From the sequence record PQ433349.1: a stretch of 64,000 nucleotides of DNA, one strand, 5' to 3'. The notes beneath the pieces are model-generated. The model was not told where the DNA came from and did no database searches. It saw only the letters and a list, made by a program, of their open reading frames with translations. Source of the stretch: Escherichia phage vB_Ec-G1. Shown piece after piece: positions 6,733 through 20,587 of this stretch. Position 1 is the stretch's first letter. Each line of letters opens with the position of its first letter. The translations under genes were made by a program, and so were the position numbers.

Positions 6733-9700
6733 ATGGCAACATTCCCAACATATCCAGCAACGTCTCTCGAACAGGGCGTAGACCTGGTTATTTTCTCATC
6801 TAACCAACTCCATGATGTTATTAATGGAAGTGCTACAGAGAGTATTGAAACAGAATCAGGGTTGATACCAACCCTGAGAAAAGCCCTTGTTGACAACTTT
6901 TTCTTTAAAAGCCCATTGGATTGGGCGCAAGGCACAAACGAAACAGTTTTTAACCAACTTCGTTATTTCCAGAATGGAGTATTGAGCGGTTATTACTATG
7001 CCCCTAACGCTACATTGGTTAACCCAATCCCTATGCAAGGGACTCCAGTAGGAGATAACAACTGGGTATTGTGGGGACTGAAAACAGAACAATTAGCAAC
7101 AGAAGTCACCCCGTGGGTATACTCTGGTGCAACGGGTTATGAAACAGTAATTAGTCCTCCTTACATCTTTGATAGTGCTATTGTTACGATCAATGGTGTT
7201 ATTCAGGTTCTGGGGGAAGCTTTCCGTATAGAAGATAGTAAGATCATCCTATCTGAACCTTTGGGACACGATCCTGCAACAGGACTGCCAAACAAGCTTT
7301 TTGCTTACATTGGTAAAATCGTAGCTTCCGCAGATACAGATCCTAACCTAGAGAACCGTCTTGTCAGTTTAGAAACAAAAACGGAAGAACTAACAGAAAG
7401 CATGGATAAAGTCCCTCTGCAAACTATTGCTCGTAAATATGGTTTGTTAGATGATGAGGTGGCTTACGCAACAGCAGGTCAATCGTTAACAGGGATTAAA
7501 GCTCTGTATGATCCAGTAGCACAGTCTTCCTACACATTACCTCCTAACATCACAGGAACTTTAACATCCTTGTCTGTTTCTGGAGTAATGACTTATTCTG
7601 GGGGGTCTGTAGATCTTTCTGCACTAGCTGTTGAACGTGGACAGTTTGTTCATTTGCCTACAAGCTTTGGTAATAACGTAACTCTGACAGCTAAAAATCA
7701 GACGATTGGACGTGGTGCTGGTCGTTATCGTTGGGCTGGAAGTTTACCAAAAAGTATTTTGGCCTCCGATACATTGGAGACAAGTGGTGGATTAGGTCCA
7801 AATGCATGGGTTCTGACCAATACAGAAGGACTGTTAACCCCTCGTGGTGGAACATACAACGATTTATTCGATGTTGTCTACTTGTCAGAATTTGCTAACA
7901 ACACAACAACATATACCACACCAGAAGCAGCTTTCCAAGCGGCACTGTTAGCAGCAAAAGCTTCGAAAAGCAAGATTCTCGATGCTTACGGTTGCGATAT
8001 GACTTTCACGACAAGCTCTTTTGATATTCAAGGTATCACTTTGCGTGGGGGTGTGTTCCGTGGTCAACGCGACTATCGTGTGCAAAATGCTACAGTAGAA
8101 GGCACAACTTTCCGTAACTCTCGTGTTATGTATTGGGGTGGTGCTGTGCGCATGTTCGATTGTTTGTGGGACGGTGCTCCTCGCGCAGGTCAAGTTGGTA
8201 GCTTGGTATTCCAAGGCAACCCAATATCAGGTACTTTTGAAATTGATAATTGTACTTTTAAAAACGGGTTGTATGGCATCCTTCAACAAGGAACAGGGGA
8301 ACCAGTAACACGTGGTGTCTTCCGTAACCTTACCTTCATGGACATGCAAGGTGATGCAATAGAACTGAACGTCATCAATAAACATTATGACGATGGTTGT
8401 GTGATTGAGAATATTTACCTGTCTAATATCGATGGGACTAACGCTCCTATTCCTCTGTCCAACTGGGGTATCGGTATCGGTGTAGCTGGTAAAGGACCAT
8501 ATGGTTACGGAATCCCTGATGATCAATATTGCAAGAATATTACAATTCGTAACGTTTTTGCAAAACGTTGTCGTCAGATTGTCCACGTAGAAGTTGGTCG
8601 TAATATCTCTATCGAAAACATTCATGGCGATCCAGACCAGACCGTATCTGTTGGGACAGGTTTGGCAACTGGCGCAGTTGTAATGTACGGAAGTAAAGAT
8701 TTTACGATTGACGGTGTTTACGGAGAGCCTAAAACAGACGGTAGCACACTTGCAAGTAATATCCGTATGATTTATTTGGAGTGGGGAACTAACGCAGTTC
8801 TGGACGGAGAGGGTAATCCGGTAGTTCCGGCACAGGGTAGACCTTCAAACCCATGCTTTAACTATTCTGTTCGTAATATTCATACCAAAACTGGACGTGT
8901 TTTTGCGGGAGTTTCCGCTGGGCCAGGTTATGAAAACAGAGTTAGCTTTGAAAATATTCGTTGCGCTGCATTGCAGTTGTTCGGTATAGCTTCTTGGCTT
9001 TCAATGTCTAACATCACCTGTAATATCTTCGATTGTGTTGGTCAACCTGAATCTGGTCCAGGGACATTTTATGATGGATTCTTCCGTAGAGAAAAATCTG
9101 TTCTTGAAATGGTTAACGTAAACTGTTACCCAGATGGCAAGACGATGGTTACTGGTCGTCCACAGTGGAGCCGTTGCCGTTACTCGGATATTCATCGTGT
9201 CAACTGTAATGTTGAAGCTAATATGTATACCAATATCGCAGGTGGTATTGGAGCTATTGTAGGGACAACGGGCAAAGTTTATTACTTAGAGCCTAATCCT
9301 AGTCGAAACATTGATGGAATGCATTTCCCAACAGGGAAAGAGTTTGACAAAGGGGATATGATAGTCAAGGCGGATAATACGTTCTTCCTTGTAACAACAA
9401 GTGGGGCATATATTCCAGATATCCCAGCTTTCGGTATTCGAGCTACACAGGCAGGAGATACCTTCCTGACACAGAACTTGACTCCTAACGGGACAGCAAC
9501 AAATGCTTCTTGGTTGTATCATTACCCTCTGTCAGCAGGGACACGTATCCGTATTCCTGGTGCTGGCGTAGGTGGAGCAGATTTGGACACAGTTATTACT
9601 CGTGCACCTTATCAAGATAATGATACGTGGACTAACCCAGTTAAAATAGACATTGCAGATCCAATTGTAACGCCTACAAGTGCTGGAGTTAGAATTAAAA

Positions 9701-9786
9701 CCATACCTAATGATTCCAGTAATGTTTCTGTAGGTAATACTGCGGTTATTCGCCCAACGCCAGTAGTAGATGTGCCAACAACCTAA
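6733..9786 (+). CDS. tailspike protein with beta-helix domain
   Basis: 1017 aa; conserved N-terminal anchor region then repetitive beta-strand-rich region typical of polysaccharide-degrading spikes. Confidence 0.7.
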   Translation: MATFPTYPATSLEQGVDLVIFSSNQLHDVINGSATESIETESGLIPTLRKALVDNFFFKSPLDWAQGTNETVFNQLRYFQNGVLSGYYYAPNATLVNPIPMQGTPVGDNNWVLWGLKTEQLATEVTPWVYSGATGYETVISPPYIFDSAIVTINGVIQVLGEAFRIEDSKIILSEPLGHDPATGLPNKLFAYIGKIVASADTDPNLENRLVSLETKTEELTESMDKVPLQTIARKYGLLDDEVAYATAGQSLTGIKALYDPVAQSSYTLPPNITGTLTSLSVSGVMTYSGGSVDLSALAVERGQFVHLPTSFGNNVTLTAKNQTIGRGAGRYRWAGSLPKSILASDTLETSGGLGPNAWVLTNTEGLLTPRGGTYNDLFDVVYLSEFANNTTTYTTPEAAFQAALLAAKASKSKILDAYGCDMTFTTSSFDIQGITLRGGVFRGQRDYRVQNATVEGTTFRNSRVMYWGGAVRMFDCLWDGAPRAGQVGSLVFQGNPISGTFEIDNCTFKNGLYGILQQGTGEPVTRGVFRNLTFMDMQGDAIELNVINKHYDDGCVIENIYLSNIDGTNAPIPLSNWGIGIGVAGKGPYGYGIPDDQYCKNITIRNVFAKRCRQIVHVEVGRNISIENIHGDPDQTVSVGTGLATGAVVMYGSKDFTIDGVYGEPKTDGSTLASNIRMIYLEWGTNAVLDGEGNPVVPAQGRPSNPCFNYSVRNIHTKTGRVFAGVSAGPGYENRVSFENIRCAALQLFGIASWLSMSNITCNIFDCVGQPESGPGTFYDGFFRREKSVLEMVNVNCYPDGKTMVTGRPQWSRCRYSDIHRVNCNVEANMYTNIAGGIGAIVGTTGKVYYLEPNPSRNIDGMHFPTGKEFDKGDMIVKADNTFFLVTTSGAYIPDIPAFGIRATQAGDTFLTQNLTPNGTATNASWLYHYPLSAGTRIRIPGAGVGGADLDTVITRAPYQDNDTWTNPVKIDIADPIVTPTSAGVRIKTIPNDSSNVSVGNTAVIRPTPVVDVPTT

Positions 9787-9848: not shown

Positions 9849-11873
9849 ATGAATTTAACAAGACCTAATAGTGCGATAGCCGATCTGGTAGAAGCTACTT
9901 ATCGAAAACGTCGCAGCTTTGAGGCAGGTTTTACATTACGTAATTCCCGTGAAGTTTTGCTGTTAGCAGCAGAAGGGAATTATTACCAATGGAAAGGAAC
10001 TTTTCCTAAAGTAGTTCCAGCAAACTCTACGCCAGCCACCACAGGTGGTATTTCTTCCCTTGCATGGCAAAGTGTTGGGACCGCTGATGATATAGCAATT
10101 ATCAATGCCAAGTTTACGGCAATGCAGCAACAGATTGATGATCTGTCGGAAACAATACCTGAAGCTGGTAAATCGGCTTATCAGATCGCACTTGATAATG
10201 GTTTTGTTGGAACAGAAGCACAATGGCTTGCTTCTTTGAAAGGGGATACTGGTGCTCAACTTAATATTAAAGGATCATTAGCAAGCACTAGTGAACTACC
10301 ATCCACAGGTAACGTTGCAGGGGATGGTTATATCGTAGGTGATGTAATCTACGCTTGGGATGGTTCTGTTTGGAAACTTATTTCTTCTCTTGGGCCAGAA
10401 GGTAAATCAGCTTACGAGGTATGGTTGGCAGATGGTAATACAGGATCTGTTTATGATTTTCTTACCTCTATAAAAGGTGATAAAGGCGATGTTGGTCCTA
10501 CAGGGCCACAGGGAGCACCTGGTGTTAACGCCAACGGTTTTGATTATCGTGGGGATTTGCCTTCTACAAGTAACTTACCACAACCTAACTCTGAAAACGT
10601 AAGCCAAGCTTATTCTATCAATGGTAATCTTTATGTCTCTAATGGGACAGCTTGGGTCAACATGGGTAATATTGTTGGTCCTCAAGGTCCACAAGGTGAG
10701 GCAGGTAAAGACGGTCTAGATGGAACAGATGGGGATGAAGGGAAATCTGCATATCAAAGTTGGCTGGATGCTGGTAATGAAGGGACAGAAGTAGATTTTA
10801 TTGCCTCACTTAAAGGTCCAAAAGGAGACAAGGGTGATCAAGGAGAGCGAGGTCCACAAGGTGAACTAGGTCCACAAGGACCAGTGGGTGCAACAGGATC
10901 AGGCTTAGAGATTATCGGGGTTCTGAACAGTGAAGCTGAACTTCCTCCTACTGGAGAAGTAGGTGATGCATATAAAATTAATAATGATTTGTATGTTTGG
11001 GTTCAAGATGCTACGGAATGGATGAATGTTGGCAGTCTTGGAGGAACATCAATTACAGCTAAAGGTCATGTTCCGAACAGTGAAGCTCTCCCTGTTTATA
11101 ATAACTATGGTGATGCCTACTTAACTGAAGATACTAGTAATCTTTACATCTATACCTACGATCAAGACACCAATTCCGCATCTTTTGTTGACATGGGAAG
11201 TATTAAAGGCGACAAAGGTGAAAAAGGGGATAAAGGAGATAAGGGTGATCCTGGAACAAACGGAACCAACGGTACTAATGGGACCAACGGTAAGGACGGC
11301 GCACAGTGGTTTGTAGCAACAACTAATCCAGTCGCAGGTGATGGTGTTATCAATGATTACGCTTTCAATACTACCACTGGGGCAGTGTTTAAGAAAACAG
11401 ATTCTTCTACGTGGACACTTATAGGAACTCTTCCTAGTATACCAGAAGCCCCTCAAGATGGCTTGACGTATGGTCGTTCTGATGGAAACTGGATCGAAAT
11501 ATCAGGATCAGATCCTACGGAAGCTATAACACCAACTAGAGTTACAGCAGGTTTCATGGAACTTGAAACAACTACTGCCAACTCTGGAGCATCTTGGACT
11601 CCTTCTGGAACTTCCAATATGTATGTTGTTACAGTAACTGATGCTCTGACAGTTGGAGCATGGCCTGGTGTCACTGGCTCTACAAAACCTAAAGCGTTTT
11701 CAGCAATGATTTATTTGATTCAAGATACAACGGGACACACGGTTACACTAGATGCGTCTTATGGAGCACTAAATGATACAGAAATAGCAACTGCTGCTAA
11801 CGCAGTAACAATTTTGCAATTAACGTATCCTGGTGTGGGTGATATCGTGGACATGGTTGTTGTAACACGATAA
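9849..11873 (+). CDS. collagen-like tail fiber protein
   Basis: Several Gly-X-Y runs (GPQGPQGEAGKDGLDG, GDKGDQGERGPQGELGPQGPVG, GDKGEKGDKGDKGDPGTNGTNGTNGTNG). Confidence 0.75.
   Translation: MNLTRPNSAIADLVEATYRKRRSFEAGFTLRNSREVLLLAAEGNYYQWKGTFPKVVPANSTPATTGGISSLAWQSVGTADDIAIINAKFTAMQQQIDDLSETIPEAGKSAYQIALDNGFVGTEAQWLASLKGDTGAQLNIKGSLASTSELPSTGNVAGDGYIVGDVIYAWDGSVWKLISSLGPEGKSAYEVWLADGNTGSVYDFLTSIKGDKGDVGPTGPQGAPGVNANGFDYRGDLPSTSNLPQPNSENVSQAYSINGNLYVSNGTAWVNMGNIVGPQGPQGEAGKDGLDGTDGDEGKSAYQSWLDAGNEGTEVDFIASLKGPKGDKGDQGERGPQGELGPQGPVGATGSGLEIIGVLNSEAELPPTGEVGDAYKINNDLYVWVQDATEWMNVGSLGGTSITAKGHVPNSEALPVYNNYGDAYLTEDTSNLYIYTYDQDTNSASFVDMGSIKGDKGEKGDKGDKGDPGTNGTNGTNGTNGKDGAQWFVATTNPVAGDGVINDYAFNTTTGAVFKKTDSSTWTLIGTLPSIPEAPQDGLTYGRSDGNWIEISGSDPTEAITPTRVTAGFMELETTTANSGASWTPSGTSNMYVVTVTDALTVGAWPGVTGSTKPKAFSAMIYLIQDTTGHTVTLDASYGALNDTEIATAANAVTILQLTYPGVGDIVDMVVVTR
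11209..11297 (+). repeat. tandem 9-bp repeats encoding GDK/GTN collagen triplets
   Basis: gataaagga-type and ggaaccaac-type units repeated 3-4 times within the fiber gene. Confidence 0.6.
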
Positions 11874-11875
11874 CA

Positions 11876-11901
11876 GAAGCCCCGAAAGGGGCTTTCTTTT
11901 T
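11876..11901 (+). terminator. intrinsic terminator
   Basis: gaagcccc gaaa ggggcttt hairpin followed by ctttttt. Confidence 0.7.
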
Positions 11902-11914
11902 ATGGAGGGTTTAA

Positions 11915-14587
11915 ATGTTTCCAATTCCAATATTTACTATTATGACCAGCACTGGTGTCGTTCCTCTGCCAGCAGGTATTGTTAAAAAAGTAATTACTTT
12001 AGATTACCCAGATAACGCTGGTAATTCTAACAGCAGTTTAGCAATTTTGCTTAATGATGGTAGATTGTTTACTCAAGGTGCAAACCTCTTTGGTGAGATT
12101 GCAGATGGAACTCGTAGTGCACGATTCAATAATTTCCACTTAGCTTCTACTGTAGTAGCAGATGTGTTTACCGCAGATCGTTGTTTTGTTATTAAAACTA
12201 ACAGTGGGGGATGGCAATATTCAGGATTGACAGCAGGGTTGGTAGGATCTATAGCAGCAGGTGGTACGGATGCATGTGTAACTACTTGGACCAGCTTTCC
12301 ATCTGTGATAACAGGGACTATTTCTTTAGCCAATCTTAAAGAGGTTAAAGGAGGGTATAACAATACTCTCTGGTTAATGAATAGCGGCGTTCTTTATGGA
12401 TCGGGTCAAAACACAGTAGGCAGTTTAGGTGCAAGTACTACTAACGAAGTTTCTACTCCTCGTCAGATAACAAGCGCAGCAGTTGCTTTTGATGCAGGTT
12501 ACAACCAATGCTCTTATGTCAACAATGTGGGAACCTTGCGTGTTTGTGGAGCTAGTAAAGGTTTAGCAGGTAATAATAACACAACAACAGCTTTTGTCAA
12601 TGCCAAGATATCCGCTACTGAAACAGTGTATGTCAAAGATTACATCAATACAGTTTCCCAGACAATAGTTGTAGGAGATACCTCCGGTGGCACGGGTACA
12701 GTAAACTACTTATATGTTAGATCTAATACAGAAACAACCTACACTAAACTGGATACCTTTGCAGCAGGTTTCTCAACATGGAAGTTTCCACCAAGCCGCC
12801 ACTCTTTTTTCGTTGGGATCAATAATTCCTTGTGGGCTATTGGTAAGAACTACACTGCAAACTTAGGTTTGGGGTATGATTCTGCGAGCGGAGATCCACT
12901 CCAAGTGGGAAAACCAGTTAAACCTGAAGGAGTGGGTTCCTGGGATATAAACAAGCTCACAAGCGTTCATACGCTGAATATGGATGTTACTAACCAATTA
13001 GGTTATCAAGGAACCTTTTTCGTTTATAATGGAGATATGTATTATTCCGGTATTTGGAAAGATGGGAAAGCCTCGTATCTGTTCAATAGTGGTCTAAACT
13101 ATAATAAATTCACACCAATAGCAAGCTCCGTGATTACGGGTGATATTCTGGCAACTGGTTTAACTACAGATTCTTTAGGAATTTGTATTGTAGGTGGAAC
13201 TAAACAGTTGACACATTCTGTTAGCCCAGAAGGAGGTAAACTTTTCAATATTAAATACACTTCTTCTGCCCCTCCAAACATGACAATATCATCTACTGGT
13301 TTAATGACTTTCCATGCAGAAGGTGGTTTTGATGCAGGTATGACAGCCTTAAACGCTGAAGGAACAACTTTATCAGATACCTCTGGAGGATATGCTTCAA
13401 CATTGAGCGTTTACACCCCTAGCTTATCTGCGATGGATGTAGGAACAACACAAACAATGGTAGCAGAAATAACACCAACAGGAGCAGCAAGCTTACCTGA
13501 TATGGTTGTTGAGTATACAACTACAGATCCTAATGTTGCTACAGTAGATCCTACAACTGGTGTAATAACTGGTGTTGGTGATGGTGGTTGTAGGATTGGT
13601 TGCACAGCTACGTATCAAGGTGTTGTTACCGCTTCTGATAGTTCTTATTTAACGGTGAATGCTGTTGCGGGAAAGGAGTTAGCTCCATCTCCGAGTAGTA
13701 GTTTAACGGTTCTAAACGGATATTTCAACCACTCGGCAGATGGGGCAATTACGTTCCCAACTTTATCGGGTACTGTTACACCAGCTAACTTTGTAGTTAA
13801 GGTGGATGACGTTGTAGTTCCTTCAAGTAAAGTAATATTTAGAAACAAAGCTTTCTCTACAGTGGATAGTTATCCAGCAGGAGAATATAGACTGACTATT
13901 GAATTTGCAAGTGCTTCAGTAGTTAATAGTGTGGAAGTGTCTATGGAAGCAAACCCAAGTCTTTTAGAACTTTGGGGCGGTAATAGAATCAGTTATTCTA
14001 CAAGCCCAGCCTCACAATTCTTAAAAGGTTGTGCTAACTTAAGACGAATAACTTCTGATTGTTTTAGTAACACATCTTACACCGGAACATCTATAAGCGG
14101 TATCTTCTCTGGCTGCACAAGTTTGACAGCTATCCCTGAAGGATTATTCAGTGATGCTTTATTTCCTTCAATGACAACAATGTCAAGCACGTTTGAAGGT
14201 TGTACATCTTTAACATCTATTCCTTCAGATTTATTTAAGAATCTGTCAAAAGTTACAAGATATTCTTACACCTTTAAAGATTGCACCTCTCTTGCAGAAG
14301 TTCCAGCAGGAATGTTTGATAATATTCCAACGAAAGTGACCTCTTTAACAGCTACATTCCAAGGTTGTTTAGGACTTACAGATTTTAATAAGATCTTTAA
14401 TGACAACCCAGGGTTAACTGTTTGTGGTAAACGTGGAGCATTATCTTCTTTCTTTAGTGGATGCACAAATCTTACAGGAACAGGAACAACATTAACAAAT
14501 ACATTAGGCGGAGTAGCTAATAGTTACCTATTCAGGTATTGCACAAAACTTTCTGATTATAACAACATTCCTTCGGGTTATAAATAA
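11915..14587 (+). CDS. tail fiber/adhesin with Ig-like (Big_2) domain and leucine-rich repeats
   Basis: 890 aa; Big_2-like segment (ATVDPTTGVITGVGDGG); C-terminal repeats FSGCTSLTAIPEGLF / FEGCTSLTSIPSDLF / FKDCTSLAEVPAGMF. Confidence 0.6.
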   Translation: MFPIPIFTIMTSTGVVPLPAGIVKKVITLDYPDNAGNSNSSLAILLNDGRLFTQGANLFGEIADGTRSARFNNFHLASTVVADVFTADRCFVIKTNSGGWQYSGLTAGLVGSIAAGGTDACVTTWTSFPSVITGTISLANLKEVKGGYNNTLWLMNSGVLYGSGQNTVGSLGASTTNEVSTPRQITSAAVAFDAGYNQCSYVNNVGTLRVCGASKGLAGNNNTTTAFVNAKISATETVYVKDYINTVSQTIVVGDTSGGTGTVNYLYVRSNTETTYTKLDTFAAGFSTWKFPPSRHSFFVGINNSLWAIGKNYTANLGLGYDSASGDPLQVGKPVKPEGVGSWDINKLTSVHTLNMDVTNQLGYQGTFFVYNGDMYYSGIWKDGKASYLFNSGLNYNKFTPIASSVITGDILATGLTTDSLGICIVGGTKQLTHSVSPEGGKLFNIKYTSSAPPNMTISSTGLMTFHAEGGFDAGMTALNAEGTTLSDTSGGYASTLSVYTPSLSAMDVGTTQTMVAEITPTGAASLPDMVVEYTTTDPNVATVDPTTGVITGVGDGGCRIGCTATYQGVVTASDSSYLTVNAVAGKELAPSPSSSLTVLNGYFNHSADGAITFPTLSGTVTPANFVVKVDDVVVPSSKVIFRNKAFSTVDSYPAGEYRLTIEFASASVVNSVEVSMEANPSLLELWGGNRISYSTSPASQFLKGCANLRRITSDCFSNTSYTGTSISGIFSGCTSLTAIPEGLFSDALFPSMTTMSSTFEGCTSLTSIPSDLFKNLSKVTRYSYTFKDCTSLAEVPAGMFDNIPTKVTSLTATFQGCLGLTDFNKIFNDNPGLTVCGKRGALSSFFSGCTNLTGTGTTLTNTLGGVANSYLFRYCTKLSDYNNIPSGYK

Positions 14588-14617
14588 GAAAAGGAGCCAT
14601 TTGGCTCCTTTCTTTTA
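14586..14617. terminator. bidirectional intrinsic terminator between convergent modules
   Basis: aaggagcc atttg gctcctt hairpin flanked by A-run and T-run. Confidence 0.7.
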
Positions 14618-14651
14618 TTCAGCGTTCAACCTCATACACTTGAAACAAACC

Positions 14652-15578
14652 TTAGAAGCAATGCAGGAAGTTTCTACCATATTGCAGTCCAATAGGGGCA
14701 AATGGAATATCATCATCGAAGTCCATTGGAGGTTCTTCTTGATTACTTGGTTCTGGTTGTGGTTCAGGTTTCTTCTCTTCTTTCTTCTCTTCTTTCTTAG
14801 GTTGTTCTGCGGAACCACGAATGGCAGCAGCAACTTTATCAGACAGAGCCAGAACTTTACGAGCAGAATCAATCAGATCTTCTACAGATACAGTCTTAAT
14901 GGTATGGTCTTTACAAGCATTGAGAATAGCGTGACCAACAGATGCCCCAAGATCATAATCATTAATATCAACGCCACGAGATTCAGCAATTTCAGATTTC
15001 AGCGTGACAGTTGCAGATTGAACAACCCCAGCGATATCGAAAGCATCGCCTTTAACACCATTACGAATCAGTTCCAGTGCACCATTTACTGCGTGACCAG
15101 TTTCCAGACCTACAGTATCACGTTTTTTATAGGACTGTTTAGGAGCAGCATCGTTGGAACCTTTATTGCCAGAAGATTTGTTAGACTTCTGAACACCATC
15201 GGTAGACAATACTGTAATACGAGATTTTTTAGTATTGTAGTAAGTTTTACCGCCTTTATTATCAACGCGATCAATATCAATACTTACTTCTACACCTTTT
15301 TCAATAGTGATCCAATTATCACCTTCTTTGACTTGCAGGTTTTCATAACCTTCTTTCAGTTCAATATCACCAAGAGAAATCCAAACACCTTTCTCATCTG
15401 GTTTAGCACCTTTCTCTTTCAGAACAAGAGAAGCTCGGTGAGTTGAAACAATCGTTTTTCCTTCCCAATGAAAAGTTTTAGGTTCAGCGAATTTATCCAG
15501 TTTAACGTAGTCTACGATACCAGTTGCATAAGTTACGGTTTTGCCTTTACGATCAGTTTCAGTATTAATTACGGACAT
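14652..15578 (-). CDS. single-stranded DNA-binding protein-like
   Basis: 308 aa; KEEKKEEKKPEPQPEP linker then acidic DFDDDIPF motif (E. coli SSB-Ct-like), followed by 15 more residues. Confidence 0.55.
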   Translation of the reverse strand: MSVINTETDRKGKTVTYATGIVDYVKLDKFAEPKTFHWEGKTIVSTHRASLVLKEKGAKPDEKGVWISLGDIELKEGYENLQVKEGDNWITIEKGVEVSIDIDRVDNKGGKTYYNTKKSRITVLSTDGVQKSNKSSGNKGSNDAAPKQSYKKRDTVGLETGHAVNGALELIRNGVKGDAFDIAGVVQSATVTLKSEIAESRGVDINDYDLGASVGHAILNACKDHTIKTVSVEDLIDSARKVLALSDKVAAAIRGSAEQPKKEEKKEEKKPEPQPEPSNQEEPPMDFDDDIPFAPIGLQYGRNFLHCF

Positions 15579-17254: not shown

Positions 17255-20200
17255 CTAGTGACAGGACGCCCAGGAGTTACCCACATCATATCCGGCAGTA
17301 AGCTGAACATTAAGATTGTAAAATTCTCCAGCCTTAGTAACAGCTAAAGCAGCAAGTTCACCTGCCCGACTATAGGCTGTAAACCATCCACCTTTGGGAG
17401 ATTCATGAATGTTAGCCCAAATTTGCCCTGTCTCTTTTTCCTTATTATGCTTCCATTCTTCAACTTTAGCAAGGCATTCTTTATCAATTTTCTTTTGTTC
17501 TTCAGGATCGTCTACTTTCTTCCAACCTAATGATTCAGGTGAAAACCATTTAAATTCTACAAGGTTACGAGAAACTTCAAGCTGGGCTTCATCGTGATAT
17601 GCAATCATTTGTTGCACGAAGTCTTTATTCTTCCAGTCATCTTTAAAGAAGTCAACACTTAGCCCTTCTTCTTCGATCATGTCGTCATAAATAACCATTG
17701 CACGTTTAGCACAGATAACCCCACCACTTTGGAACAGAGAGTTAAGAATCGCGTGAGCAGAACGAGTAGGAACCTTACGACCGTCAATACCCAAAACATA
17801 CTGTTTACCAGTCTTAACCCAGAAATCGTTTAAACGTTCTTTAAGACGCGCCAGTGGGAATGCAGCTTCCCAGAAAGCATCGAACACCAACTGACCTGTA
17901 AACTTATCGCTACCAATTGTTTTAGCAACCTTGTCGGCTTGTGCACCATAAGTAATACCATACTTAACAGATTTAGCAGGACTACGTTCAAATTTACGTC
18001 CAATAGTTTCAGTGATACGTTTTGCCATCATTGTGTGAACATCATTAGGTTTCTCTAACAACAGAGCGTTACAATATTCATGTGGCTCCGGCTCGTACCG
18101 CCAACAGTTTCCTGTGATGGTAATGCAGTCTTTCTGACGCATGACCCACGTACCAAGTTCTGTTTGTGGACACCAAACATCCTCTACACCCCACTCTTCA
18201 ATAGTCAAACTTTGAACAGGAATGTGAGAGCGGTTAGCCAATGTTACCACTTTTACTTTCTGCTCTTTTGTATTGAAAGCTACAGAGATATTGCCTCCAT
18301 GCACCAGGTACGAGGCAGTTAAAGCTGCTTCAAAAAGTTCACCTGGGTTCTGCGCCCAACGCCAAACAGGTTTTTGTTTATGTTCATGCCAGTAACCATC
18401 TGCAATCAAGAAACCTTCCAAGAAAGCTACACGCTCGGCATGAGACATATTAACTACACGCTCTACCCACGGAACATCCCATTTACCTTGTTGAACAGAA
18501 GTTAAACTATTTACCTGATCTTGTTCCATGTTAAATGGAGCATTACAAATAATATTATCTCCTGTGCAAAGCTCGGCAGTTGTTCTGACTTTAGGCACAT
18601 AAGTATTCCCTTTACTACGGGTATTAACATACCAACGGTGATCTGCTGTTGCACGGTAAGTGTGTGATTTCCCTTTAATCTCAAACGTCTTACTATTTTT
18701 ATAGAAGACCTTACCTTTTACTTTAGTCCATTCTTTCAGACCTGTTTCAGCATTGTACCCTAAAATCTCATCCCCTTCCTTCAGGTCGTGATATCCTACC
18801 CAACCTTTACGAGTCAAAGCTTGAGCATCCATCGGCACACAGTAGTGTGACTCAATCTTTGCTTCCAAAGAGTCGAAGTCATAACCGATCTGGAAGTATT
18901 TAGGAACTTCTACACCAAACAAGTTACGCATCTCCCATCCAAACAAAGATGTGACACGAGGAATATTAGCTACAGATCTATGTTTCATACGAGAGGTTGC
19001 AGCATCACATGTAGCGGCTGGGGTAGGAATACGCCCATCTGCCCTTACTGCGGCTAAGAAACCTTTATCGTATTCTTGATCTTCTTCATCTTCTTCCCAA
19101 TCAGCACCGCCACCTAAAATAGAGTTCCTACGATGCTTATACGTTAAGTATTCTACAATCTGTGTAGCATAGGGAAATTTCTCACCCAAAGCTTGCAAAT
19201 TGGGACAGATTTCTTTTTCCTGACCTTTGGTAAAACATGGGTTAGTCAATACTTTAAGACCGCGACCTTTACCTTTTGCTATACGCTCTTGAATCTTCCT
19301 TTCCAAGGTTTCCGGTGTGCACTCCAGATGATCACAACGGTCCTGACAAAAATTAGAAGATAAAGTTTGCTCAACGTAAGCTCGAATACCTTTCTGAAGT
19401 TCTTCCTCACTCTTTTTAATCTTGGTGCCAGATTTAAGAGTCAAATCTTTATCTTTATATTCTGATGGTACCCAACCTAATCCTACAAGCCAGTTTTTAA
19501 TATGGGTTGTATCGTTCAATGTTGCAGGGATGTTAGGATCACACAGAGGCTCATCTGCTGCAACTGGCAGTTTCCACTCTTTCCCCAACATAACTAACCA
19601 CCAATCGCCATCCCTCTCTTCCAAATGACCATCATGTTTCTTAGCAAAATTGATCATATGGTTAGTTGGTTCTAGGTTCTTTTTAATTTGCAATTTAGGC
19701 GGAATAAAAGCTTTAAGATAACCTTTTGTTGCTGGTTTAGGTGGCAAAATAGGCTCAACGAGTAAACGAAGACGCTCCATTTCTGCATCCAAAAAAGCAA
19801 GGTTCTCTTCTGCTTGTTTCATGTTAAAAGCAAACCCACGGTGTTCCTGGCGTGTAATAATGTCTGCTACACGTTGTTCAAGTTCAAATGGACCTTCCCA
19901 TTTATCATAATCACCCCATTCTTCCATAAGGTAATTATATACGCTCGTATTGGCTTTGTTGTCATAGATACAGTAATAAAGCATATCCGCAGCAAAAGTC
20001 TTAAATCGATCTTCTTCTGGAATCTCTTTACGGAAATCTATTTTTACATCACCACCTGCTTTTCGAGAAAGTGCTGCCAAGCTATGTCCTGATTTGCCCT
20101 CAATCTTTCGATCTGGGTTTAACACTTTACTCAAAATCAAGGAGTCAATAAGTTTTACCTTATTTTTGCCCCACGTATTATATTTAACACTGTAATCTAA

Positions 20201-20587
20201 TCCATAAAACAGTTTTGTAGCCAACCAGTCGTAGTTGATACCGTTGTGAGCCACAGCCATTTCAACCAGATATTCAGGCTTGTCTTTAAAATAACCTTCA
20301 TGATTAATAAAATCTGGGAAATCTTTTAGTTGAAAATGCGTGTAATCTTGCGCCACATACTCTTTAAGAACATATGTGTATTTACCATCTGACTCTTCAT
20401 AAGGACGCCCATCAAAGATGTATTTAGGGCCATCGTGGAAAGCTACTATTTCTCCTGTTTCATGGTTCTCTAAGACAATACAGTGCATTTGAAATGTGTC
20501 TTTGAGACGATAAGGACTAGCTAAATAATCAATAGTGTCATTATTCAACAATCCGTTTGCTTCAATATCCCATGTAAACTTACTCAC
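17255..20587 (-). CDS. DNA polymerase A (Pol I family) interrupted by an intein
   Basis: Motif A-like DFDSLEAKIESHY, motif B-like KSVKYGITYGA, motif C YHDE; about 245-aa insert after motif A. Confidence 0.85.
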   Translation of the reverse strand: MSKFTWDIEANGLLNNDTIDYLASPYRLKDTFQMHCIVLENHETGEIVAFHDGPKYIFDGRPYEESDGKYTYVLKEYVAQDYTHFQLKDFPDFINHEGYFKDKPEYLVEMAVAHNGINYDWLATKLFYGLDYSVKYNTWGKNKVKLIDSLILSKVLNPDRKIEGKSGHSLAALSRKAGGDVKIDFRKEIPEEDRFKTFAADMLYYCIYDNKANTSVYNYLMEEWGDYDKWEGPFELEQRVADIITRQEHRGFAFNMKQAEENLAFLDAEMERLRLLVEPILPPKPATKGYLKAFIPPKLQIKKNLEPTNHMINFAKKHDGHLEERDGDWWLVMLGKEWKLPVAADEPLCDPNIPATLNDTTHIKNWLVGLGWVPSEYKDKDLTLKSGTKIKKSEEELQKGIRAYVEQTLSSNFCQDRCDHLECTPETLERKIQERIAKGKGRGLKVLTNPCFTKGQEKEICPNLQALGEKFPYATQIVEYLTYKHRRNSILGGGADWEEDEEDQEYDKGFLAAVRADGRIPTPAATCDAATSRMKHRSVANIPRVTSLFGWEMRNLFGVEVPKYFQIGYDFDSLEAKIESHYCVPMDAQALTRKGWVGYHDLKEGDEILGYNAETGLKEWTKVKGKVFYKNSKTFEIKGKSHTYRATADHRWYVNTRSKGNTYVPKVRTTAELCTGDNIICNAPFNMEQDQVNSLTSVQQGKWDVPWVERVVNMSHAERVAFLEGFLIADGYWHEHKQKPVWRWAQNPGELFEAALTASYLVHGGNISVAFNTKEQKVKVVTLANRSHIPVQSLTIEEWGVEDVWCPQTELGTWVMRQKDCITITGNCWRYEPEPHEYCNALLLEKPNDVHTMMAKRITETIGRKFERSPAKSVKYGITYGAQADKVAKTIGSDKFTGQLVFDAFWEAAFPLARLKERLNDFWVKTGKQYVLGIDGRKVPTRSAHAILNSLFQSGGVICAKRAMVIYDDMIEEEGLSVDFFKDDWKNKDFVQQMIAYHDEAQLEVSRNLVEFKWFSPESLGWKKVDDPEEQKKIDKECLAKVEEWKHNKEKETGQIWANIHESPKGGWFTAYSRAGELAALAVTKAGEFYNLNVQLTAGYDVGNSWASCH
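18107..18841 (-). mobile_element. intein with LAGLIDADG homing-endonuclease domain inside PolA
   Basis: Insert begins with Cys (CVPMDAQ), contains VAFLEGFLIADGY, ends ...ITGN followed by Cys; junction codons checked against nucleotides. Confidence 0.6.

Follow-up and report, generated by a model that had tools for sequence, protein, structure and literature searches.

A leucine-rich-repeat head on an exchangeable C-terminal cassette of an 890-residue tail-cluster protein in a Phapecoctavirus-type coliphage

The 64,000-nucleotide stretch of Escherichia phage vB_Ec-G1 analysed here (sequence record PQ433349.1, one strand; hereafter the window) is that of a Phapecoctavirus-type E. coli myophage (Stephanstirmvirinae). 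Its tail-fibre gene cluster ends with a coding sequence for an 890-residue protein, which starts with ATG and runs on the plus strand from 11915 to 14587, exactly as an earlier note on this DNA had placed it. This protein is the subject of the present report. The orthologous gene of ESCO5 is gp226 ('tail protein'), and the PHROG family is 11922; existing deposits label the product 'tail protein', 'hypothetical protein' or 'BIG2 domain-containing protein', and the PHROG families that match it are annotated as tail. It is encoded within the plus-strand tail cluster, where it is preceded by genes for baseplate wedge proteins, a Mu-like short tail fibre with its chaperone, a lipoprotein, a 1,017-aa colanic-acid-degrading tailspike and a 674-aa collagen-like fibre with a Tail_spike_N anchor. 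Directly 3' of the gene, transcription reverses toward an SSB-like (single-stranded DNA-binding) gene and the DNA polymerase gene; near 14 kb the GC skew changes sign, and the base composition shifts with the transcription switch. The position at the end of the tail cluster is syntenic in ESCO5, phAPEC8, PVP-SE1 (gp40) and rV5 (a large 'structural protein with Ig domain'). Over its 2,673 bp, the gene matches ESCO5 and vB_EcoM_REC at 98.8% identity, and 33 phage records span 80% or more of it. Phapecoctavirus members have among the broadest host ranges of therapeutic coliphage candidates (PMC10844046), and the individual roles of their tail genes have not been worked out (PMC8594841, PMC13450770).

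The gene is bracketed by two hairpins. A strong intrinsic-terminator-like hairpin with a T-run (GAAGCCCC-GAAA-GGGGCTTT, 11876..11895, plus strand) separates the collagen-like fibre gene from the ATG, and a terminator is annotated at the equivalent position in the phAPEC8 record. Since this terminator lies just upstream and no promoter-like site was found between it and the ATG, the gene may be expressed by read-through, at a lower dose than the main fibres. Downstream, a bidirectional intrinsic terminator (14590..14611) is common to the gene and the convergent SSB-like gene.

The full-length AlphaFold2 (AF2) model showed a mean predicted local distance difference test (pLDDT) score of 87.5 and a predicted template-modelling (pTM) score of 0.55, the latter as expected for domains joined by linkers. 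The N-terminal 22 residues (MFPIPIFTIMTSTGVVPLPAGI, 11915..11980, plus strand) include five near-invariant positions in the alignment (P3, P5, G14, P17 and G21) and were modelled with low to moderate confidence (pLDDT 45-65); this peptide is a candidate virion-attachment segment or may serve in closure of the propeller that follows. Residues ~23-400 (11981..13114, plus strand), about 43% of the protein and its largest domain, form a seven-bladed RCC1-like beta-propeller with pLDDT mostly 85-96. The identification is based on a match to the RCC1 repeat profile (Pfam PF00415, 24.1 bits, cutoff 21.7) together with the seven-bladed fold, for which a Foldseek search of the PDB gave UVR8 as the best match (6xzm, E=8.7e-14, target TM 0.70), followed by HERC2 (its RLDs) and then by RPGR and RCC1. 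The whole-domain model WD40_RLD also matched (E=8.4e-11), but its 42 bits are below the cutoff of 150. The propeller is followed by two tandem Ig-like domains of the Big_2 type (residues ~401-496 and ~497-583; 13115..13663, plus strand), both all-beta sandwiches in the AF2 model. A Big_2-like domain had been predicted by the earlier note, in agreement with the two stretches matched by PF02368 (E=3.1e-8, 33.9 bits, cutoff 22.8), of which the better covers residues 505-565; among PHROG families, the Ig region matched the 'structural protein with Ig domain' and the Ig modules of 'major tail protein'.

The trunk so defined is joined through a flexible linker (residues 584-597; 13664..13705, plus strand) to the C-terminal head. 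The first part of the head is a beta-sandwich (residues 598-690; 13706..13984, plus strand), with strands at residues 14-102 of the head model and pLDDT above 90; its place is taken in more distant relatives by a PKD-like (DWGDG) domain, as judged from the consensus and PKD matches. The second part (residues 703-890; 14021..14584, plus strand) is composed of seven leucine-rich repeats (LRRs) that start at residues 703, 731, 760, 787, 815, 847 and 873 (window 14021, 14105, 14192, 14273, 14357, 14453 and 14531). Each repeat carries one cysteine of a ladder (C706/734/763/790/818/850/876) within the core [G/D/Y]-C-[T/A/L]-x-L, which occurs seven times at spacings of 28, 29, 27, 28, 32 and 26 residues; after shuffling of the 890-aa protein 20,000 times, no more than three copies were ever obtained, and seven in 0/20,000. 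The longer motif F(S/E/K)GCTSLT(A/S)(I/V)P..LF, described in the earlier note as the form of the C-terminal repeats, is exact at 731 (FSGCTSLTAIPEGLF) and 760 (FEGCTSLTSIPSDLF) and nearly so at 787 (FKDCTSLAEVPAGMF); the remaining four repeats, at 703, 815, 847 and 873, are degenerate copies in the same register. In the AF2 model these tandem repeats of 26-32 residues with their ladder cysteines build a parallel-beta-sheet solenoid structurally like solved LRR proteins, with helices in the last repeats as a C-terminal cap. Mapping of the orthologue variability onto the repeat register gave no clear pattern.

The Pfam profile LRR_5 (PF13306), by which the earlier note had proposed that the repeats be recognised, gave nothing at E<=1 with the full protein, nor at E<=1e-3 with residues 585-890. 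The next best profiles also stayed below their curated cutoffs, namely DUF285 (PF03382, E=0.099, 12.8 bits, cutoff 25) and the NCBIfam PARCEL family Liste_lipo_26 (TIGR02167, E=1e-4, 21.9 bits, cutoff 30), and the protein carries C.SL..IP..LF in place of the DUF285 signature sFNqdIs.Wdvs.V..M..MF. Because no direct LRR_5 match was available, the LRR assignment was made from the fold and from transitive homology. With residues 589-890 as the phmmer query, 852 proteins were detected at E<=0.01, many with precomputed LRR_5, DUF285 or LRR_8 domains, and matches at E 1e-43 to 1e-14 carry PF13306, PF03382 or PF13855. Among 108 aligned relatives, LRR_5 was recorded in 44, DUF285 in 29 and LRR_8 in nine. 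The profile made from this alignment, with the consensus F..C(T)SLTSIP..LF.....VT.F... and a period of 27-28, matched two BspA-type structures, 4fs7 (E=1.1e-23) and 4gt6 (E=5.8e-20), as well as TpLRR 6mlx (E=1.1e-7), which agrees with the likeness to bacterial LRR surface proteins noticed earlier. The BspA-type family has been discussed elsewhere (PMC2843621). With the model and these matches taken together, residues 703-890 are confidently predicted to be an LRR solenoid homologous to BspA-type surface proteins, and the head can be placed in the BspA/TpLRR/DUF285 branch of the LRR superfamily, outside both Pfam families as now modelled.

After a comparison of 40 homologues, residues 1-584 were found to be conserved and the C-terminal ~300 residues to fall into unrelated classes. 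Allele A, the type of this window and of ESCO5, is carried by P0001-7, 12, 14 and 15. Allele B (P0008-10, 13, 16, 17, 26 and 38), found in phAPEC8, ESCO13 and ZCKP1, has a GNGWYRV motif and is without the Cys repeats, and its flanks are ~98% identical to those of allele A. Allele C (P0021-25) consists of a PKD-like segment and a canonical DUF285 (E=6.4e-39). P0020 represents a fourth head type, and trunk-only forms of 565-609 aa, including PVP-SE1 gp40, also exist. The boundaries are sharp. Against phAPEC8, the DNA is 97.9% identical up to 13665 (residue 584), cannot be aligned beyond, and is again ~98% identical downstream; the protein identity to allele-B relatives is 91-100% and then nothing from residue ~585. 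The left boundary coincides with residues 584-589 of the linker, the sole internal segment of the AF2 model with pLDDT below 50. On the right, the terminator hairpin differs by allele and is carried along with the head, and homology restarts directly after it. The exchangeable cassette (13666..14611, plus strand) comprises the linker with the beta-sandwich and the LRR, followed by the stop codon and by a terminator hairpin of its own. The profile of allele B matched residues 168-455, the distal part, of the solved 'Tail fiber protein gp17' (9occ, E=5.3e-31), and also the RcGTA head-spike fibre (6tb9, E=1.5e-13). The LRR module therefore fills a slot otherwise holding a recognised fibre-tip domain, which is the strongest argument for a distal binding head. 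The exchange of the cassette, the propeller and the beta-sandwich at residues 598-690 had all been overlooked in the earlier note.

By tblastn, allele A was found in 35 phage records. Outside Phapecoctavirus, the matches were all weak and lay in Klebsiella P2-like prophages (in the 'tail protein I' region), jumbo phages (Eowyn gp353, pEa_SNUABM_54 and KpHz_2), Synechococcus S-CBWM1 ('putative tail protein') and Butyrivibrio Bo-Finn. In the BFVD set of viral structures only 15 entries reached E<=1e-3, most of them from metagenomes and named 'BspA family LRR surface protein'; in line with this and with the literature, the fold is barely documented on phages and is as unusual there as had been supposed. 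The sole close BFVD match to the LRR module is gp001 of phage anhysbys (310 aa), which is the LRR head alone, since the record (MN850648/NC_052656) is linearised inside the gene (23-940). The genomic contexts of distant LRR homologues are mixed (phage-like, mobile-element and bacterial) and so do not support a tail role for the wider family. On two phage-like gut metagenome contigs of 70-82 kb (L007, 4847-8464, and L008), a 487-aa homologue of the LRR module with 146 cluster members adjoins two BACON-domain proteins, so that gut phages may hold a broader repertoire of surface-binding proteins with LRR and BACON domains. Genomes at least 96% identical to that of the window have been deposited as 'Campylobacter phage B15/A150/A147', 'Pseudomonas phage PsgM04F' and 'Klebsiella phage ZCKP1'; the hosts named there are questionable, or else these phages infect an exceptionally broad range of hosts.

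As for the trunk, its full length is found in Phapecoctavirus and, with 38-43% identity, in relatives from Cronobacter, Enterobacter and Salmonella phages (EspYZU14, EC152 and PVP-SE1); phi92-like Justusliebigvirus have the Ig part alone in common, within a 'tail carbohydrate esterase', and rV5-like phages the N-terminal ~195 residues alone, which open the ~1,878-aa syntenic 'structural protein with Ig domain'. The N-terminal region is the most widely conserved, as would be expected of a putative virion-proximal end. Several shortened forms keep the head. Residues ~195-472 are deleted in frame between two FDAG motifs in P0164/P0169 (610 aa), the Ig domains are deleted in P0011 (573 aa), and in P0041 (contig L002, 8001-9191), seen on one contig, residue 74 of the collagen-like fibre is fused to the LRR head at a junction with 16/18-nt microhomology (window ~10075-10092 and ~13623-13640). 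P0041 was considered as a natural shuffling of the head onto a Tail_spike_N anchor, a reading that was rejected, as it corresponds to an in-frame deletion from ~10092 to ~13616; it was taken as weak evidence and could stem from a deletion in a mutant or from faulty assembly. In all these forms the head stays in frame, on near-full-length phage contigs, which hints that the head is the part under selection; the deletions could also be laboratory deletions or assembly artefacts.

From this solid structural description we infer that the product is probably an accessory adhesin without enzymatic activity that belongs to the multivalent set of tail fibres of a Phapecoctavirus. The N-terminal peptide, propeller and two Ig domains would attach the protein to the fibre and baseplate network and act as a spacer, and the head beyond the linker (~585) would bind a ligand on the host surface reversibly, without cleavage, thereby complementing the neighbouring colanidase tailspike and the collagen-like fibre. 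Recombination would exchange the head cassette among phages and so retune adsorption and host range. No catalytic family was detected in the protein by Pfam, PHROG and NCBIfam profile searches, and a binding role is favoured for a non-enzymatic module in the slot that holds a fibre-tip domain in sister phages, in keeping with the earlier proposal of a module distinct from the enzymatic tailspikes. A constant, putatively anchoring end and an exchangeable distal end are seen among close relatives, and such a mosaic, with the C-terminal ~300 residues replaced on a constant trunk, is typical of receptor-binding proteins. The position also speaks for an adhesin: the gene closes the tail cluster, in an arrangement kept in ESCO5, phAPEC8, PVP-SE1 and rV5, and the rV5 gene for the 'structural protein with Ig domain' was treated as a lateral tail fibre gene by Maffei et al. 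(PMC8594841).

An accessory role for the predicted adhesin agrees with the genetics of phage 536_P1, whose module is 97.4% identical to that of the window. In 57 clones resistant to 536_P1, 77% of the mutations lay in lipopolysaccharide (LPS) core synthesis and 18% in the K15 capsule, and the three membrane-protein mutations were each always accompanied by an LPS core or K15 mutation (PMC11495123). Enterobacterial common antigen (ECA) and LPS core were likewise indicated as receptors for this phage group by the BASEL data (PMC8594841). Since the 536_P1 resistance, which concerns the phage as a whole, maps to LPS and capsule, the LRR head is probably not the essential receptor binder. The lower dose suggested by the upstream terminator would also fit an accessory role. 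The head is dispensable in some lineages, as the trunk-only orthologues show.

Several observations weigh against the adhesin reading. No assignment of the protein or its orthologues by virion mass spectrometry or electron microscopy (EM) was found in the literature searched; the syntenic protein is missing from the lists of the rV5 paper and its supplements, and the CB7 paper was uninformative. The O177 'proteomics' paper was discarded as virion evidence as it contains no mass spectrometry, and the phi92 cryo-EM paper as a guide to placement, since phi92 is without an orthologue and has the Ig segment alone in common. The AF2 monomer is a set of globular domains on linkers with no trimeric shaft, in contrast to the collagen repeats of the upstream fibre gene, and the homologues of allele B are fibre tips, which are usually trimeric. 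The name 'tail fiber' given earlier is a loose one for this string of globular domains, for which no virion proteomics was found. To the missing LRR_5 match must be added that P0164/P0169 lose half of the propeller naturally on full-length contigs, which questions the need for the trunk, that the propeller could itself be the lectin, and that the ligand of the head is putative.

In a rival reading with reversed polarity, the propeller would be the receptor-binding or lectin part, and the LRR head would dock to another part of the phage, for example another fibre, the baseplate or a chaperone. Many lectins are beta-propellers and LRRs are well known for mediating contacts between proteins, the neighbouring fibres anchor in a different manner through Tail_spike_N, and within allele A the heads of P0003-P0007 are more conserved (89-97%) than their trunks (76-81%). 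A docking domain should be conserved, however, and this head is swapped or absent while the virion genes remain ~98% identical; the allele-B head is homologous to distal fibre tips, and it is the N-terminal ~195 residues that are common to rV5 gp27, as an anchor end would be. We consider the reversed arrangement unlikely. The two terminators that bracket the gene, the tolerance of short and deleted forms and the failure to find virion proteomic evidence in the literature searched would also be compatible with a moron-like accessory protein outside the virion, released at lysis or acting in or on the infected cell, for instance in superinfection exclusion or surface modification. This seems quite unlikely, given that the N-terminus is without signal-peptide character (no basic n-region is visible in the sequence), that the gene lies on the strand and in the operon of the tail genes, with no separate promoter-like site from terminator to ATG, that the covering PHROG families are annotated as tail, and that proteins exposed on virions typically contain Ig, fibre-tip and LRR modules, allele B being homologous to structural fibre tips.

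The target of the head may also be sought outside the bacterium. Mucus retention has been proposed for the Ig-like Hoc of T4, and BspA-type LRR proteins of gut and oral bacteria are host-tissue adhesins. By analogy, the Ig and LRR parts might bind animal mucins or matrix proteins and keep the phage in gut mucus, the LRR behaving as BspA or internalin adhesins do, in line with the abundance of module relatives beside BACON-domain proteins on gut metagenome contigs and with a module that is apparently not the essential receptor binder. A mucosal role nevertheless appears very unlikely, since variation of the bacterial surface explains more simply why the module is swapped with a fibre tip of the bacterial-receptor type. 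In a bolder version of the adhesin reading, the head would be an internalin-like protein-recognition module that binds fimbriae, flagella, an autotransporter or adhesin, or an animal mucosal protein, and not a glycan. We regard this as rather doubtful; if true, it would be the first characterised LRR-type phage receptor-binding domain, and phages and gut bacteria would be trading a common pool of BspA/DUF285 adhesin cassettes.

Some features of the neighbouring genes were observed in passing. In the 1,017-aa tailspike (6733-9786, plus strand), Tail_spike_N is internal (residues 302-361), after an N-terminal extension of ~300 residues; this arrangement suggests a branched attachment, like that of the Ackermannviridae tailspike protein complexes. 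The 674-aa fibre (9849-11873, plus strand) contains Tail_spike_N (E=1.3e-19) together with several G-x-y stretches of the collagen type, and a module repeated about four times of ~60-70 residues (…KSAYQ…WL…G…F…LKGxKGD…). On the other side of the shared terminator, the open reading frame (ORF) of the SSB-like protein (14652..15578, minus strand) continues at its 3' end (region 14619-14700) for 15 codons beyond the canonical acidic C-terminal tip (...DDDIPFAPIGLQYGRNFLHCF*), where the SSB-like proteins of ESCO5 and phAPEC8 end right after DDDIPF. The extension results from a private insertion or replacement of ~54 bp between terminator and stop codon; it could mask the tip and affect partner binding, or be a sequence error. 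The DNA polymerase I ORF (17255..20587, minus strand) encodes a 1,110-aa protein with a 245-aa insertion (residues 583-827, window 18107-18841) that is missing from the 861-aa homologue on contig L003. The insert has a Cys at its start, ...ITITGN followed by Cys at its end (ESHY|C...GN|CWRYE) and a LAGLIDADG-like LEGFLIADGY inside, an intein-like signature as judged from the residues, and no Hint or LAGLIDADG domain was detected in it by Pfam.

Dozens of sequenced relatives already carry the gene; the LRR head and the trunk of propeller and Ig domains are what is unusual. The literature searched contained no characterised LRR head on a phage, no work on the function of LRR, BspA or DUF285 domains in phage particles and no paper on the architecture or cassette structure of this gene, and a paper on jumbo phages describes PARCEL/DUF285 as 'not described in phages up to date' (PMC7765460). 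What is gained is a defined natural exchange cassette of 0.95 kb, with at least three unrelated heads (LRR, gp17-like fibre tip and DUF285) on one trunk, which offers a ready site for host-range engineering and a testable marker for the prediction of host range from genotype. The LRR solenoid, a fold of adaptable ligand recognition, would join the short list of folds of phage binding domains, and through this head it is connected with many still uncharacterised homologues, from phages and bacteria, in gut metagenomes.

Comparison with known systems defines the head more closely. The repeat unit of BspA/TpLRR-type proteins (LRR_5; Bacteroides ovatus BACOVA_04585 4fs7, the cell-surface protein 4gt6 and Treponema pallidum TpLRR 6mlx) is ~23 residues, against ~28 here; those proteins are bacterial lipoproteins or surface proteins, whereas the present one is a phage tail protein that does not reach the LRR_5 model. 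In length and register the head is closer to DUF285/PARCEL (PF03382, TIGR02167), the surface lipoproteins of Mollicutes and Listeria, with a 26-residue repeat and a similar hydrophobic register. DUF285/PARCEL also gave the best direct profile matches, and true DUF285 occupies the same slot in the orthologous P0021-P0025, but the scores remain below the curated cutoffs and C(T)SLT(S)IP..LF stands in place of the signature. At the level of the whole protein, phAPEC8 gp086 and its ESCO13 and ZCKP1 counterparts share the slot, a length of 888-891 aa and a ~98% identical trunk (1-584) and differ in the unrelated C-terminal ~305 residues, 9occ/RcGTA-fibre-like and without Cys repeats. PVP-SE1 gp40 (604 aa) stands at the same cluster-end position with the whole trunk at 38% identity and without the head, and rV5 gp27 (Vequintavirinae) at the same position has the N-terminal ~195 residues at ~40%, in an Ig-rich protein of ~1,878 aa without LRR. 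With the modular receptor-binding proteins of tailed phages, the protein has in common a mosaic evolution with a sharp boundary at a linker; it differs in its build, a trimeric coiled-coil or beta-helix shaft there and a string of propeller and Ig domains here.

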